A stretch of 8,976 nucleotides of DNA, taken from the UHGV virus genome UHGV-1999812. One strand, 5' to 3'. Below, one piece after another: positions 2,962-8,976 of this stretch; position 1 is the first letter of the stretch, and each line of letters begins with the position of its first letter. The position numbers and the translations under genes were made by a program. The stretch is from a virus. The notes under the pieces were generated by a model, which saw only the letters and a list, made by a program, of their open reading frames with translations, had not been told where the DNA came from and did no database searches.

Positions 2962-3258
2962 GTCATGCTTAAAAACATGTTGATCGCCTCTTCTTTCGGG
3001 CTGTATGATGCCGGAGTCGTCCACATGGCGACCGGGTTTGACAGCCTGAATACTACAGCGGACAGCCGCTTACATTCCGATATGCGGTTTTTTTGTGTCC
3101 GTAAGCCTACCCATACCCGCATTATGGCGGGGCGTAACGGGGGAGCCTTTGCGCTCGCTGGTTCCTGTAGTGCCAGTCTGTCAACCCTGTTACGTCTCGC
3201 CACCATGTTTGACAGCGTAGTAGCGAGACTCCTTAATTTCACTACAGGAGCCTTTCAC

Positions 3259-4109: not shown

Positions 4110-5503
4110 AAAGCGCACCGAACTTAAAAAAACAGCCTTACGACAAAATGACCGAGGTCATTATTTTTGCGGGTAGTGATGCCTGGGCACACGCGAAGCA
4201 GTGGCAGGAGCAGGAGGGCCGACTTGCTGGCGATAATGTGCCACCTGTATGGCTTGGGGAGCAGCAACTGGCAGAACTGGCAGACACGAAAATCATTGAC
4301 GAGGGGCGCTATTGCGTCCGGCTGTACAAAGCAGGCCATATCAGACCATCAAATATTAATGCCATCGCGCAAAAACTGGCAGCGGCAGGCGTACAGGATG
4401 CGAATTATTACCCCGATGGGATGCACAGCCAGAAGCGGGAGAACTGGCGCGAATATCTGGAACGGGAGCGCGGGGAAAAGCAGGAAGAAAAAGGCCACCA
4501 GCGCAAAACAAAGCTACCGATGAGCGTTGGTTCTGCCGGATACGATACACAACTTGATTACGTGGTAAAGGGGATTATTCCGGCAGTATCGCTGTGCAGC
4601 ATATACGGGGCGAGCGGTTCCTATAAATCGTTCCTTGCGGGTTCGTGGGCGTGTCACGTTTCCACGGGCCGCCAGTGGGGAGGCCGCAGGGTGGCGCATG
4701 GCGCTGTTCTCTATGTGGTTGGTGAAGGCGGTATCGGCGTTCCGCGTCGTGTAAAAGCCTGGGAGGTTGTGCACGGTGAGCAGGTGAAAAATCTGTATCT
4801 GGTAAACCGCCCCATCTTTCCGGCTGCCCCGCTTGATGTTGATGAAATGGTTATCGCTGCCCGCCAGGTGGAACGGGAAACGGGTAAACCTGTACGCATG
4901 ATTATTCTGGATACGCTGGCGCGTTGCTTTGGTGGGAATGATGAAAATGATTCCCGTGATATGGGGGCATTTATCCGTGGGTGTGACGAGCTTAAACGGC
5001 GCACAGGGGCCACGGTGCTGGTGGTTCACCATTCCGGCAAGGATGAGACGAAAGGCGCGCGCGGTTCCAGTGCATTTCGTGCTTCGCTGGATGCTGAATA
5101 CCGGATACGCAGGGAGGACGCAGGAAGCGAAGCGCTGGTTATCTCATGTACCAAAATGAAGGACGCGGAGGAACTCAAAGAAGCCGCATATGACTTACGC
5201 GTGGTGGAGCTTTTTACCGACGCTGACGGGGAGTTAATTACGTCGCTGGTGGTGGTGGATAAGCCGCGGCATCCCGTTGAACCTGAGCGCATCGAGGAGG
5301 CAGGGAACAAGACGGAAAACCATACCGCGCTATGGGGGTGCATACGTTCACGCACACAGAACGGCGACAAGTGCACGATCCCGCTGTTACGTGATGACAT
5401 GAAACGGCTTGGGTATGACGTGAAAAACATGCGGCGATGGTTAGCAAAACTGGAGAAAGACGACGTTATCTATATCGACGGTGATGATGTAGGCCCACTG
5501 TAA
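4106..5503 (+). CDS. RepA/DnaB-like P-loop replicative helicase (RecA-fold ATPase) with N-terminal domain of unknown function
   Basis: 465 aa. Walker A-like SIYGASGSYKSFLA, Walker B-like VRMIILDTLARCFGG (hhhhD), and VLVVHHSGKDETKGARGSSAF resembling the sensor/arginine-finger region of RepA-type helicases. Followed immediately by an iteron cluster. Confidence 0.85.
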   Translation: MKSAPNLKKQPYDKMTEVIIFAGSDAWAHAKQWQEQEGRLAGDNVPPVWLGEQQLAELADTKIIDEGRYCVRLYKAGHIRPSNINAIAQKLAAAGVQDANYYPDGMHSQKRENWREYLERERGEKQEEKGHQRKTKLPMSVGSAGYDTQLDYVVKGIIPAVSLCSIYGASGSYKSFLAGSWACHVSTGRQWGGRRVAHGAVLYVVGEGGIGVPRRVKAWEVVHGEQVKNLYLVNRPIFPAAPLDVDEMVIAARQVERETGKPVRMIILDTLARCFGGNDENDSRDMGAFIRGCDELKRRTGATVLVVHHSGKDETKGARGSSAFRASLDAEYRIRREDAGSEALVISCTKMKDAEELKEAAYDLRVVELFTDADGELITSLVVVDKPRHPVEPERIEEAGNKTENHTALWGCIRSRTQNGDKCTIPLLRDDMKRLGYDVKNMRRWLAKLEKDDVIYIDGDDVGPL

Positions 5504-5703
5504 AAAAGTGAGTAGAAAAGTGAGTAATGGTGAGATTTTTACAAAATATTAACACGATTACTCACTTTCTCACCTGTATATAGGCAAAAAAGTGAGTAGT
5601 AAAAAATCACATATAAAACACGCACATAGAAAACCCGAAAATCACAGGTGAGACGAAGTGAGCGATTCCAAAAAGTGAGTAAAAAAGTGAGTAGTGGTGA
5701 GTA
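5504..5703. repeat. Iteron-like direct repeats (GTGAGTA core), putative replication origin
   Basis: At least six direct copies of (A)AAAGTGAGTA(G) at 5504-5514, 5516-5526, 5589-5600, 5670-5681, 5682-5693 and 5697-5703; degenerate GGTGAGA at 5529-5535 and 5647-5653; one inverted copy TTACTCACTTT at 5558-5568. AT-rich tracts flank it (5535-5556, 5747-5777). No long ORF with a ribosome-binding site. Confidence 0.6.
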
Positions 5704-5942
5704 AACAGCAAAAAACACAGAGCAGAGCAGCACGAAAACACAGAAAATCACTTTATTTTTATTTAAGTGTTTTGCTCATGAACGAAGGGCCACAACACGG
5801 CAGAAAGACACGCGAAAGCCCCCTGGCTGATAAGTGCATTCATGAGCACAGCAGCAACAAACTTTACCACGCTGACAGAGCGGGAGATTGCAGAAGCGGA
5901 ACAGGTAACAACCATCAACGTTAAAACCGGAGAGGTGGAATC

Positions 5943-6363: not shown

Positions 6364-6633
6364 ATGGTACATGACAGCATAGCGGAAGAACTGGAGGCGA
6401 AGGGCTTTTACCGGAGAGCGGCGGCGCGATGGGCTGAAGTGATGATGCTGGTGGAGACTGACAGGGAACGCGAACGGGTGGCAATGCGCAGGGCAGAGTG
6501 TTACGGGAAGACGCAGAGGCCACCGGAGCAACCGGATGATTTAGGCGGCCTGAAACGGGCGATTAAACGCACTGAAAAAGAAATGGGGATAGACGGGAGA
6601 GGCAAAAAAATCTGGCGTAGCTACCAGAAGTAA
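6364..6633 (+). CDS. PerC-family transcriptional activator
   Basis: 89 aa. N-terminal DSIAEELEAKGFYRRAAARWAEVMMLVETDRERERVAMRRAECYGK matches the conserved PerC core (E-x-K-G-x-YRRAA-x-RW-x-EV) as I recall it. ATG is 10 nt after the ssb stop. Confidence 0.75.
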   Translation: MVHDSIAEELEAKGFYRRAAARWAEVMMLVETDRERERVAMRRAECYGKTQRPPEQPDDLGGLKRAIKRTEKEMGIDGRGKKIWRSYQK

Positions 6634-6746
6634 GCACAGAGCCGGAACAGTCGGTTAGCCTTTCTGATTGTGTGCGTGTATATCGTTTTATTGCGACGTT
6701 AAATTAAACTGGTAGGACCAGATACACCAACGCAAGAGGCTACCGG

Positions 6747-7154
6747 ATGAACGAGCAAACCCATCACGTACCAAAAGACATCGAGCGGCTTAAATTCATC
6801 GACGCCATAGACAACGGAGATAAACCAGGTGATGCATGGTGTGATTCGCTTGCTGATATCGTGTCGCATTCAGTAGCGGAGCTTACCCGTAATGGCATGG
6901 AGGAGGCAGACGCTTTCAGAATCGCAAAGCGGGTTGTCGCTGCAATCGCCTTCTATGCTGGTGGGCGAAGTCTTTACCTTCCAACAGGCAGATCACTTTT
7001 CGCAGCATTGCGCGAATACGAGATTTACTACAGGTGGGATAACGGCGAAAAATTGCAGGTATTACGCAAAGAGTACGCAATATCCGAAACCCATATTTAC
7101 GACATCATACGACGACTGAGAAAGAAGCACGCCAATAAAATCACGCAAGACTAA
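6747..7154 (+). CDS. Mor-family transcriptional activator
   Basis: 135 aa. The C-terminal half FRIAKRVVAAIAFYAGGRSLYLPTGRSLFAALREYEIYYRWDNGEKLQVLRKEYAISETHIYDIIRRLRKK aligns with phage Mu Mor (EIVVAICKHLGGGQVYIPRGQALDSLIRDLRIWNDFNGRNVSELTTRYGVTFNTVYKAIRRMRR): GG-x-YIP-x-G, R-x-x-I, F-x-G-x-N, Y-x-I-RR-x-R. AGAGG RBS 7 nt before ATG. Confidence 0.8.
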   Translation: MNEQTHHVPKDIERLKFIDAIDNGDKPGDAWCDSLADIVSHSVAELTRNGMEEADAFRIAKRVVAAIAFYAGGRSLYLPTGRSLFAALREYEIYYRWDNGEKLQVLRKEYAISETHIYDIIRRLRKKHANKITQD

Positions 7155-7289
7155 CCACAGATACCAGCAGCAACCGTTATATTTGCGCCACTATCGCAAA
7201 AAATCCCCTTTCAGGGCATCACGGACGCCACAAAACACCAAAACGCATCAGAGAGCGAATCAGGCGCTTTAATGATGATTTGTTTTTTT

Positions 7290-7358
7290 GTGAAAGAAGG
7301 TGAAAGAAGGTGATTTTTGTGAAATTAAGCGAAATCACGTGAAATCAGGTGAAATAAT
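7290..7358. repeat. Seven 10-bp-phased GTGAAA direct repeats (protein-binding array or curved DNA)
   Basis: gTGAAAgaag (7290-7299), gTGAAAgaag (7300-7309), gTGAtttttg, tGAAAttaag, cGAAAtcac, gtGAAAtcag, gtGAAAtaat: the GAAA cores fall at 7292, 7302, (7312), 7321, 7331, 7341, 7351, one helical turn apart. Contains the palindrome TCACGTGA (7335-7342). Lies between the Mor-like gene and the RNA array. Confidence 0.6.
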
Positions 7359-7395
7359 GATACCCGTTCATCTGGTGCTACCAGACGAAACAGAC

Positions 7396-7424
7396 TTTAC
7401 CCGCGCATAATGCATGATTACTAT
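7396..7424 (+). promoter_or_regulatory. Putative weak sigma-70-like promoter upstream of the tRNA-like RNA array
   Basis: TTTACC (7396-7401), 17-nt spacer, TACTAT (7419-7424); predicted start near 7431, where the first RNA unit begins. Each hexamer matches consensus at only 4 of 6 positions. Confidence 0.2.
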
Positions 7425-7436
7425 TTTGCCTGGCTG

Positions 7437-7517
7437 TATGGTGTACTCTTAATCGGTAAAGCGGCATAAACCCTAACGGGCCATATGTTTATGTGGGTTC
7501 GACCCCCGCCACCAACA
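7437..7517 (+). ncRNA. tRNA-like structured RNA, unit 1 of 3
   Basis: T-arm GTGGG (7493-7497) / loop TTCGACC / CCCGC (7505-7509), with a U·G at the second pair; acceptor-like 3' strand CACCAAC (7510-7516) then unpaired A; D-arm-like TCTT / AATCGGTA / AAGC. The 5' acceptor strand is degenerate (5 of 7 pairs). No encoded CCA. Confidence 0.4.
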
Positions 7518-7540
7518 GCCAACTACCTTATCGCTTTTTT

Positions 7541-7631
7541 GCTGGTGTACTCTTAATCGGTAAAGCGGCACCCGCTTGTATAGCTTCCAGAAAGCGGGAT
7601 GTTTATGTGGGTTCGACCCCCACCACCAGCA
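7541..7631 (+). ncRNA. tRNA-like structured RNA, unit 2 of 3
   Basis: Acceptor-like helix GCTGGTG (7541-7547) with CACCAGC (7624-7630) and unpaired A7631; T-arm GTGGG (7607-7611) / TTCGACC / CCCAC (7619-7623); central 7-bp hairpin CCCGCTT (7571-7577) / AAGCGGG (7592-7598) with a 14-nt loop in the anticodon-arm position. Confidence 0.45.
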
Positions 7632-7654
7632 GCCAACAACCTCATCGCTTTTTT

Positions 7655-7736
7655 GCTGGTGTACGCTCAACGGGTAGAGTCGGTGCCAGCCTGTACAGGC
7701 TGATCATGTATGCGGGTTCGACCCCCGCCACCAGCA
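7655..7736 (+). ncRNA. tRNA-like structured RNA, unit 3 of 3
   Basis: Acceptor GCTGGTG (7655-7661) / CACCAGC (7729-7735) with unpaired A7736; D-arm GCTC (7665-7668) / AACGGGTA / GAGT (7677-7680); central hairpin CAGCC (7687-7691) / TGTACA / GGCTG (7698-7702); T-arm GCGGG (7712-7716) / TTCGACC / CCCGC (7724-7728). Non-canonical for a tRNA: 3-nt linker after the acceptor strand, 6-nt central loop, no CCA. Confidence 0.45.
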
Positions 7737-7965
7737 CGCCAAAAGCACAATTGCGCCATTTCTAAACCCACTTTAAAGCCACATAAAAACGGCTTTCGTA
7801 TCCCGTTTTATTGAGCACTCACGAAAAATGTGTACATACGCGTGTACATATACAAATTAACCCAACCCAAAGAACCGCATAATAAAAGCAATTAACGCAC
7901 ATACTAAACATTCAGATTCAATATTGAGTAACTCGTAACACTAATTCTTACTTTTCAGCCTTCAC

Positions 7966-8000
7966 AAATGCCGCCCACTCAAACAGAGCGGCATTTTTCT
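7966..8000 (+). terminator. Rho-independent terminator between island end and the dinD promoter
   Basis: Stem AAATGCCGC (7966-7974) / GCGGCATTT (7988-7996), 13-nt loop, followed by TTTTTCTT. Confidence 0.5.
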
Positions 8001-8090
8001 TCCCCGCAACTTCAATTCTGTTTTGCGTGCCTGCTCCAGATTTTGCGATGTTTTTTTGCCCAGCACACTGAGAACGTGAGATACTCACAA

Positions 8091-8106
8091 CTGTATATAA
8101 ATACAG
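8091..8106 (+). promoter_or_regulatory. LexA operator (SOS box) of the dinD promoter
   Basis: CTGTATATAAATACAG is a perfect CTGT-N8-ACAG palindrome with an AT-rich centre, about 45 nt upstream of the dinD start codon; it overlaps TATATAAAT, which could serve as the -10. Confidence 0.85.
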
Positions 8107-8151
8107 TTACAGATTTACTTTCTTTGCAATCGATATCACATGGAGTGGGCA

Positions 8152-8976
8152 ATGAACGAACATCATCAACCTTTTGAAGAAATACGGCATTATGGCACTG
8201 AAGGGCAAGAATTTTGGTCAGCTAGAGAATTGGCACCGTTACTGGATTATCGGGACTGGCGCAATTTTCAAAAGGTACTGGCCCGCGCGACTCAAGCGTG
8301 CGAAGCCAGCAATCAAGCTGCATCTGACCATTTCGTTGAAACCACCAAAATGGTTGTATTAGGTTCAGGGGCTCAACGAGAACTTGAAGATGTTCATCTC
8401 TCCCGCTATGCCTGTTACCTGGTAGTACAAAACGGCGACCCTGCGAAACCGGTCATTGCGGCAGGGCAGACTTATTTTGCTATCCAGACCCGACGGCAGG
8501 AGCTTGCTGACGATGAAGCATTTAAGCAACTTCGTGAAGACGAAAAGCGTCTGTTTCTGAGAAATGAGTTGAAAGAACATAACAAACAATTGGTTGAGGC
8601 AGCACAGCAAGCTGGGGTAGCGACAGCTACTGATTTCGCCATATTTCAGAATCATGGTTACCAGGGGCTGTATGGTGGATTAGATCAGAAAGCCATCCAC
8701 CAACTGAAGGGGCTGAAAAAGAGTCAGAAGATCCTGGATCATATGGGTTCAACAGAACTGGCGGCTAATCTCTTTCGAGCTACCCAAACAGAAGAAAAAC
8801 TCAAGCGGGATGGCGTGAATTCAAAACAGCAAGCTAATACCACACACTTTGACGTGGGTAGCAAGGTGAGGCAAACCATTCAGGAACTTGGCGGAACCAT
8901 GCCTGAGGAGTTGCCGACCCCGCAGGTCAGCATCAAGCAGTTGGAAAACAGTGTAAAAATTACAGAGAAGAAATAG
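8152..8976 (+). CDS. dinD: DNA damage-inducible protein D (DinD)
   Basis: 274-aa product beginning MNEHHQPFEEIRHYGTEGQEFWSARELAPLL, which I recognise as E. coli DinD. GGAG (8142-8145) lies 6 nt before ATG 8152; the ORF-track start at 8140 adds four residues (MEWA) and overlaps that RBS, so 8152 is preferred. LexA box upstream. Stop TAG at 8974-8976. Confidence 0.9.
   Translation: MNEHHQPFEEIRHYGTEGQEFWSARELAPLLDYRDWRNFQKVLARATQACEASNQAASDHFVETTKMVVLGSGAQRELEDVHLSRYACYLVVQNGDPAKPVIAAGQTYFAIQTRRQELADDEAFKQLREDEKRLFLRNELKEHNKQLVEAAQQAGVATATDFAIFQNHGYQGLYGGLDQKAIHQLKGLKKSQKILDHMGSTELAANLFRATQTEEKLKRDGVNSKQQANTTHFDVGSKVRQTIQELGGTMPEELPTPQVSIKQLENSVKITEKK

Follow-up and report, generated by a model that had tools for sequence, protein, structure and literature searches.

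The 8976-bp stretch of DNA analyzed here from end to end (UHGV virus genome UHGV-1999812; hereafter, the window) carries, at positions 7290-7358 of its plus strand, an array of short helically phased GTGAAA repeats that is probably a pac-type recognition array for a phage terminase. It would be an expanded, 7-unit copy of a 4-unit block located near the left end of the Sp18-type phages, Mu-like transposable phages of Escherichia coli. The window is an integrated element of approximately 8 kb, adjoining dinD and resembling the phage-inducible chromosomal islands (PICIs), and the sequence comparisons suggest that the array most likely makes this island a satellite of Sp18-type phages, packaged in their particles.

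The array consists of 7 units of 9 to 10 bp, of which 5 contain GTGAAA, 1 contains GCGAAA, and 1 contains the degenerate GTGATT. The units and the adjacent tracts are the following:

7283-7289, plus strand: T7 tract running into the array; its counterpart is the TTTTA before the first unit of the Sp18-type left end
From 7290, plus strand: unit 1, GTGAAAGAAG
From 7300, plus strand: unit 2, GTGAAAGAAG, a perfect copy of unit 1 (units 1 and 2 together, 7290-7309)
7310-7318, plus strand: unit 3, GTGATTTTT, degenerate, 9 bp, retaining only GTGA and no GAAA
From 7319, plus strand: unit 4, GTGAAATTAA
From 7329, plus strand: unit 5, GCGAAATCAC
From 7339, plus strand: unit 6, GTGAAATCAG
From 7349, plus strand: unit 7, GTGAAATAAT (units 4 to 7 together, 7319-7358)
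7358-7364, plus strand: TGATACC, directly 3' of the array, identical to the core of TTTGATACC, the putative transposase end sites of the Sp18 type

GAAA cores are located at 7292, 7302, 7321, 7331, 7341, and 7351. The initial annotation of this region had described 7 such cores, one every 10 bp; the 10-bp phasing holds, but the cores number 6, with the third unit retaining GTGA only, and because that unit is only 9 bp long, the register slips by 1 bp, resulting in a 19-bp step from 7302 to 7321. The same annotation was correct in reporting 2 perfect tandem copies (GTGAAAGAAG twice, 7290-7309) and a palindrome (TCACGTGA, at 7335-7342, inside the array). Unit 3 is the start of the second copy of a 29-bp super-repeat, and its counterpart in a related island (L007) reads CTGATTTTT. 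Tandem Repeats Finder recovered period-10 arrays at 7290-7313 and 7319-7355 in addition to the super-repeat. Half of the plus-strand GTGAAA hexamers of the window (5 of 10) fall in a 65-bp stretch inside the array, whereas in 2000 first-order Markov simulations of the window, no 70-bp stretch ever contained more than 3 copies of GTGAAA. The array is real, and chance does not explain it. The T7 tract, a T5 tract, and the A-rich units of the array are in phase. The TGATACC following the array may be a relic of an L2-like transposase site, although its significance is uncertain.

The left end of the Sp18-type phages reads TGTAACCAGGTGAATCATTTGATACCAACGAGGGTTTTA GTGAAAGGAG GTGAAATCAC CTGTAAGATA CTGAAATAAA ACAGGTGAT..., with 4 10-bp-phased units from nucleotide (nt) 40, the first of which, GTGAAAGGAG, differs from units 1 and 2 of the array by a single mismatch. 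The spaced pair GTGAAA-N4-GTGAAA occurs a single time in the 39.2-kb prophage, counting both strands, at nt 40, and in the window it is confined to the array. A matrix built from the 6 GAAA-bearing island units, with scores summed over 4 phased units, ranked nt 40 first among approximately 78,000 positions of the prophage (34.5 bits, versus 13.2 bits for the next unrelated site), whereas the matrix built from the 4 Sp18 units ranked 7319 first in the window (33.7 bits, versus 4.8 bits for the next site outside the array). By phased matrices, the array and the Sp18 left-end block are reciprocal best matches. The unit types also follow the same order in the island and in Sp18, namely ...AGNAG, then ...ATCAC, then ...ATAA. 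Contiguous alignment of TTTTTGTGAAAGAAGGTGAAA with TTTTAGTGAAAGGAGGTGAAA yields 19 identities over 21 positions, and plain local alignment of the island segment to the prophage reached a z score of approximately 6.6 relative to shuffled sequences, barely above other prophage windows; because plain alignment only marginally beats chance, the case rests on the phased array and its context. A blastn search with the array returned a single marginal match among phages, to an unrelated Clostridium phage, and none among plasmids; its exact 23-mer was absent from IMG/VR, and a scan of genome contigs for 3 phased units gave, among the matches listed, only scattered ones in unrelated phyla.

In the phage, the GTGAAA block lies 35-88 bp inside the left end, in the interval that separates L1 from L2 of the transposase sites. 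The left end has copies of TTTGATAC at nt 18, 113, and 165, and the right end has another 3, close together; given their presence at both ends, in the L1...L2-L3 / R1-R2-R3 layout known from Mu, they are putative transposase sites. We considered the array and the block themselves as Mu-type transposase end sites and rejected this assignment, because the GTGAAA tandem is present at the left end only and absent from the Sp18-type right end, and it is TTTGATAC that occurs at both. Among Sp18-type left ends collected from IMG/VR (transposases 89-100% identical), nt 35-88 are conserved in all, whereas nt 89-110 are hypervariable. When aligned to the genome of phage Mu (AF083977), the Sp18 block is collinear with Mu nt 31-70, a segment composed of 4 10-bp-phased GGGA/TGGA units (GGGAGGACAT TGGATTATTC GGGATCTGAT GGGATTAGAT), which we take to be the mapped pac region of Mu; the pac site reportedly lies at approximately nt 32-58 of the left end. 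Packaging of Mu begins when host DNA is cut approximately 50-100 bp beyond the left end, and it continues by the headful mechanism (PMC5557969; PMC7350765).

The type of block varies with the type of small terminase (TerS, gp27). In the GTGAAA-block contigs L011, L022, L029, L035, and L037, as well as in strain E2855 (WP_000360581.1), the small terminase is 100% identical to that of Sp18, and in the GGGA-block phages Mu, L041, and L051, it is 100% identical to Mu gp27. Between Sp18 and Mu, identity is 57% for the small terminase and 73% for the large subunit. In this sample of 6 Sp18-type and 3 Mu-type cases, L041 and L051 are natural swaps: L041 has Sp18-like TTTGATAC ends (transposase 79%), yet a GGGA block and the Mu TerS, and L051 combines a third type of end (TTCAAGATAA ends) with a GGGA block and the Mu TerS. 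Thus, the block tracks the small terminase rather than the transposase or the end type, which is the behavior expected of a pac site.

A survey of transposable phages extended beyond these 2 block types. Every Mu-like left end examined (L077 1-140; L041 2300-2440; L051, L053, and L057 5' of the transposase gene) contains 3 to 4 short repeats, phased at 10 bp, in the L1-L2 spacer. The core is GGGAT/TGGAT in Mu, L041, L051, and L053, GTGAAA in the Sp18 type, and CGTGAT, a third phased core, in L057, and it agrees with the small-terminase type wherever the terminase is known. Phased repeats in the L1-L2 spacer are a possible general pac architecture of transposable phages.

The connection to Sp18 was found via features independent of the array, namely, the third of the tRNA-like units (86% identity) and the Mor-family activator (47%). 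The genes and RNA units in question are:

6364-6633, plus strand: PerC-family gene, with which the backbone common to the islands ends
6747-7154, plus strand: Mor/C-family activator gene, the product of which is 47% identical to the Sp18-type late activator
7436-7517, plus strand: tRNA-like unit 1
7541-7631, plus strand: tRNA-like unit 2
7655-7736, plus strand: tRNA-like unit 3, 86% identical to a tRNA-like gene of Sp18-type prophages

The Sp18-type Mor-family protein is encoded immediately before the lysozyme gene, the position occupied by C in Mu. In a library of 1.8 billion proteins (representatives at 50% clustering), the best match of the island Mor was 46% identical and only its own cluster passed 1e-30, so that its identity to the activator in the C position of Sp18 (47%) is at least as high as that to any such representative. 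In an exhaustive protein search, the island Mor formed an isolated branch, and a word-based search retrieved 4 near-identical clusters only. The acceptor, D, and T arms of the tRNA-like units resemble those of tRNAs, but the anticodon region is enlarged and aberrant. Units 2 and 3 score above the Rfam gathering threshold for tRNA, and the labels assigned by PGAP are tRNA-OTHER and tRNA-Tyr; ARAGORN called no tRNA among the units. The tRNA-Tyr label of unit 3 is doubtful, because its anticodon region is a perfect 16-nt palindrome, CAGCCTGTACAGGCTG. Unit 3 matches a "tRNA-OTHER" at 86% identity in 76 other E. coli records, and comparison with the Sp18-type homologue (L008 5997-6076) reveals compensatory changes in the acceptor stem. 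In strain E2855, the homologue is located inside the head region of a Mu-like prophage, between G- and F-like genes, and this prophage is of the Sp18 type of O157 Sakai, where Sp18 is reported to be intact and efficiently packaged (PMC2669165).

The island and the phage also tend to occur in the same genomes. Across 5426 complete E. coli genomes, the Sp18-type left end was found in 231 and the island segment in 14. A combined query with the island and the Sp18 end matched 233 genomes, in which just 2 island records had a single place, leaving 12 of the 14 island genomes with the Sp18-type left end, compared with 219 of the 5412 others (4%). The odds ratio of 142 (Fisher p 2e-15) is a statistical association uncorrected for phylogeny.

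Genes of the island are arranged in the order int (truncated by the start of the window), an open reading frame of 298 amino acids, an AlpA-type helix-turn-helix gene, 2 isrK/C4 modules with Icd-like open reading frames, DUF4222, an AAA_25 RepA helicase, SSB, PerC, the Mor-family protein, the array, and the 3 tRNA-like units. This content is that of Gram-negative PICIs, with a terminal int, an AlpA-type regulator, and an own primase/helicase and origin, and with no lysis or tail genes; in L001, the island measures approximately 8.4 kb (the PICI-type range being approximately 8-15 kb). Sibling islands (L355-L360) have a common ASH/Icd-DUF4222-replicase-SSB-PerC backbone, with PerC proteins 63-78% identical, and carry in the slot after PerC a ClpP-type protease, HK97 capsid, protease, and portal genes, or lambda E capsid, gpD, and Nu1 terminase genes. 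Capsid and terminase modules in this place are those with which PICI and capsid-forming PICI elements exploit their helpers (PMC6092414; 10.1101/2022.09.08.507074). The variety of genes in the slot points to modular swapping of helper-exploitation cassettes after PerC. In the window, the slot is occupied by Mor, the array, and the tRNA-like RNAs, all 3 of which have Sp18 counterparts.

The array is essentially identical in islands with 3 unrelated replication modules and at 3 integration sites:

RepA/AAA_25 replication module (window, H2, H10, H14): array present
Toprim+DUF927 replication module (H1, H4, H9): array present
D5_N+DUF5906 replication module (L007): array present

This distribution bears on the possibility that the repeats are iterons of the island replication origin. 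Helically phased tandem direct repeats next to T-rich tracts do resemble the iterons of plasmids and PICIs, but an identical array accompanied by AAA_25 RepA, toprim+DUF927, or D5_N+DUF5906 does not co-vary with the initiator. Furthermore, a classical iteron field is already present directly 3' of repA, at 5500-5700, with AAAGTGAGTA at 5505, 5517, 5589, 5672, and 5684, variants of the GGTGAG type, and, near 5560, a copy in inverted orientation around an AT-rich core; this field is the likely replication origin. The iteron interpretation of the array is largely refuted, and we regard it as scarcely credible.

An equally slim prospect, also largely refuted, is that the repeats are arm-type sites of the integrase or sites of the excisionase (AlpA) within attP, as direct repeats a few hundred bp from the right end of the island might be. 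The islands have anywhere from 1 to 3 tRNA-like units separating the array from their end, so the geometry is not fixed, and the array is common to islands integrated at dinD, mdtP, and nfeF, which have different integrase/att modules and right arms. Other repeats are located at the island ends: tandem copies of AAAAAGGCATAC at each end of the island integrated at mdtP (L001 1963-1986 and 10195-10222) and GTGTACATA twice at 7830-7850 of the window, near the island end. These end-proximal repeats differ with the integration site and are candidate integrase arm-type sites.

Substitutions in the arrays of relatives are few (GAAG to GACG, GTGAAAGAAG to GTGAAAAAAG, GGTGA to GCTGA, and, in 1 relative, a G in place of an A in the unit 7 tail) and confined to unit tails or to the degenerate unit. 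This pattern, together with the persistence of the module over 3 replicase types and 3 integration sites, argues against the array being a nonfunctional remnant of a Mu-like left end that was captured, or a repeat that expanded by slippage and hitchhikes with the Mor/tRNA-like module, as does the fact that the expansion from 4 to 7 units has retained the 10-bp phase and all 3 unit types in the phage order. The TGATACC directly 3' of the array, a weak L1-like ATGATTTG on its 5' side, and the degeneration of the third unit would suit such a relic, and the conservation is uninformative insofar as all copies are recent relatives. Overall, we consider this origin quite improbable.

The space between the array and the first RNA unit contains 2 further elements:

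7396-7401 and 7419-7424, plus strand: TTTACC-17-TACTAT, candidate sigma-70 promoter for the tRNA-like array, matching the consensus at 8 of 12 positions
7367-7389, no strand assigned: inverted repeat TTCATCTGGT-gct-ACCAGACGAA, candidate operator just 5' of the -35 element, abutting TTTACC

Both hexamers and the spacer are present as noted in the initial annotation, which had called this promoter weak, and the start predicted from them, at approximately 7431, is a few bases 5' of tRNA-like unit 1. A promoter scan of 6600-8200 at a threshold of 9/12 called no site, with TTTACC/TACTAT (8/12) falling below the cut-off. The TTTACC and TACTAT hexamers are unchanged in 7 relatives, and an alternative CATAAT (7406-7411) is CATAAC in most of them; this invariance says little because the surrounding DNA is 94-100% identical overall.

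Relative to the predicted start, the array spans approximately -75 to -140. Accordingly placed, phased sites for Mor, PerC, Fis, or another protein, or curved DNA, could constitute an upstream activating region stimulating the weak RNA promoter, much as phased Fis sites are generally known to lie 5' of stable-RNA promoters such as tyrT. The phasing of the T7/T5 tracts with the A-rich units and the invariant promoter hexamers fit this arrangement, which could also coexist with a role in packaging. However, besides the weakness of the promoter, the Sp18 homologue of the tRNA-like RNA has no GTGAAA-type repeats upstream, and activation would leave unexplained why the sole match of the array is to the pac-position block of a co-occurring phage. 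Known Mor/C sites are dyads adjoining the -35 element rather than phased direct repeats such as those of the array, and that spot is already occupied by the 7367-7389 dyad. The regulated promoter that the initial annotation preferred has positional support only, and we consider an upstream activating region unlikely; by contrast, the packaging part of its other suggestion, a "centromere/packaging-type site," is backed by the comparison with Sp18, the array being the reciprocal best match of a pac-position block that co-varies with the small terminase.

The 7367-7389 dyad abuts TTTACC, as the activator site of a Mor/C promoter might abut a poor -35 element, but we found no counterpart of it in the Sp18-type prophage, and a search for a Mor/C box shared with Sp18 or Mu late promoters found none in the late-promoter regions compared. 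The motif CTGGT-N3-ACCAG occurs at 6709-6721, 26 bp 5' of the mor start codon, and at 7372-7384, just 5' of the -35 element of the RNA promoter, that is, twice in 9 kb versus approximately 0.01 expected; it has no counterpart in the Sp18-type prophage either, and the pair is a candidate operator or regulator site shared by the 2 transcription units. A second motif, ACTTTACC(A/C)CGC, is present at 5861-5874, 5' of ssb, and at 7394-7406, as the -35 region of the tRNA-like RNA promoter, where the L007 version reads ACTTTACCCACGC; it may be a common promoter or regulator motif.

Read as a pac-type signal, the array would function as follows. When an Sp18-type helper goes lytic, the island would excise (int, AlpA) and replicate from its own origin (RepA helicase, iterons 5500-5700) to form multimers. 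The small terminase of the helper (gp27 homologue) would bind the repeats, which their phasing places on a single face of the helix, and the terminase would cut approximately 50-150 bp to the left of the array, as in Mu. A headful would then be packaged rightwards, through the tRNA-like array, att, and int onward, and a head of Sp18 size would hold approximately 4-5 copies of the island. The remainder of a Mu-specific helper-exploitation module would be formed by the adjacent Mor/C homologue and tRNA-like RNAs; in the manner of P4 delta and P2 Ogr, the homologue of Mor may cross-activate the late genes of the helper or answer the helper activator.

Several observations weigh against this reading. 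The array points out of the island, and packaging in situ would take host DNA rather than the island; multimers would be required, since the island has no capsid-size gene. The position of the array would also suit an upstream promoter element. The contiguous similarity to Sp18 is short (19/21; blastn-short E = 0.13, tied with 2 chance 13-mers). The status of the Sp18 block as pac is an inference as well. Two island genomes are devoid of the Sp18-type end, and shared ancestry among Shiga-toxin-producing or bovine strains may inflate the co-occurrence. Finally, only closely related copies of the island were recovered (Mor identity of 88% or more, arrays almost the same), which leaves no deep test of conservation; searches for more distant relatives via Mor gave none useful in genome contigs, in viral contigs (one weak unrelated match), or in metagenome contigs (where the query was the 40%-identical representative P0005).

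The same sequence evidence could be read as a decoy, with the array titrating the small terminase and hampering packaging of the helper rather than packaging the island. Seven units against 4 in the phage would favor competition, and satellites commonly interfere with the packaging of their helpers (PMC6092414; 10.1101/2024.04.22.590561). Yet, a full set of excision and replication functions and a helper-like activator are better suited to mobilization, and a single chromosomal copy would be a weak sink unless amplified, in which case amplification would equally allow packaging. We therefore regard a pure decoy as very improbable.

Satellites with helper packaging sites and a Mu-like helper for a PICI are already known. 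Our literature search retrieved no description of a mimic of a transposable-phage pac, nor of a pairing between phased repeats and terminase type, and to our knowledge both are undescribed. The broader proposition, namely, that this island family is the first one in E. coli to be a satellite of a transposable (Mu-like) phage and spreads by means of an amplified helper pac, that phased repeats form a general pac cassette exchanged together with TerS, and that lateral transduction may follow, is plausible, although taken as a whole, we lean slightly against it. As to its last component, the outward orientation of the array means that packaging in situ could drive lateral transduction of the chromosome on the dinD-ligB-spoT side.

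Under this broader proposition, the pac of Mu-like phages would consist of approximately 4 short 10-bp-phased repeats in the L1-L2 spacer, the core of which (GGGAT, GTGAAA, or GTGAT) would be read by the small terminase. The packaging reading, if true, would provide a testable packaging signal for Sp18-type phages, which are common and active in Shiga-toxin-producing E. coli, and explain how a minimal island without structural genes moves. Transposable phages normally package integrated copies, and the principle of a satellite carrying the packaging site of its helper would be widened from cos and classical pac phages to this group. Phased repeats combined with the small-terminase type would furnish a sequence rule predicting the helper of a satellite, and chromosome-facing arrays could mobilize neighboring host genes.

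Two additional observations concern the island itself. Consecutive isrK and C4 antisense-RNA modules at 2542-2730 and 3016-3207 (Rfam 63.8/77.6 and 32.3/72.3 bits) have a1/b1-like target matches and overlap ash/Icd-like open reading frames; the pair represents an antisense immunity module of the P1/P7/P4 type, present in duplicate on a PICI-like backbone. In NZ_AP045179.1 (JNEC-KY203), the island Mor/array segment is found at 2 places, at approximately 75 kb and 4.61 Mb, and the combined query with the island and the Sp18 end gave 4 places.

Among known systems, the Fis- or UP-type upstream activating sequences of stable-RNA promoters such as tyrT are likewise phased A/T-rich elements 70-140 bp upstream, whereas the repeats of the array are a specific hexamer common to a phage end. 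Mu pac resembles the Sp18 block in its collinear position, in its approximately 4 short 10-bp-phased units, and in that the block type tracks gp27, but differs in the unrelated core sequence (GGGA/TGGA in Mu, GTGAAA in the Sp18 type); the island array departs from Mu pac further, with 7 units outside any transposable element, no L1, and no right end. The pair of P4 delta and P2 Ogr offers a precedent for a satellite encoding a homologue of the late activator of its helper, as the island Mor does with respect to Sp18 (47%), although the proteins belong to the Mor/C family in one case and to the Ogr zinc fingers in the other, and the 7367-7389 dyad has no match in the prophage.

The backbone of int, AlpA, pri-rep, and PerC is common to the window island and the PICIs of E. 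coli (PMC6092414). PmCI172 and PmCI86 of Pasteurella multocida are PICIs with a Mu-like myovirus helper (PMC6092414); PmCI172, which we liken to the island by description only, has small capsids and an encoded capsid homologue, whereas the window island has no structural gene. The phage-inducible chromosomal minimalist islands are similar in their very small gene content, the absence of capsid-remodeling genes, and concatemer packaging as proposed here, and differ in host clade, in their virulent helpers, and in their backbone (PMC10803314). Finally, P4 with the cos of its helper P2, SaPIbov5 with its cos, and EcCICFT073 with its cos are all small integrative elements that have no terminase of their own and carry a packaging signal of the helper; in those cases, the helpers package unit lengths between 2 cos sites, whereas here the helper would be a transposable phage that packages by the headful.

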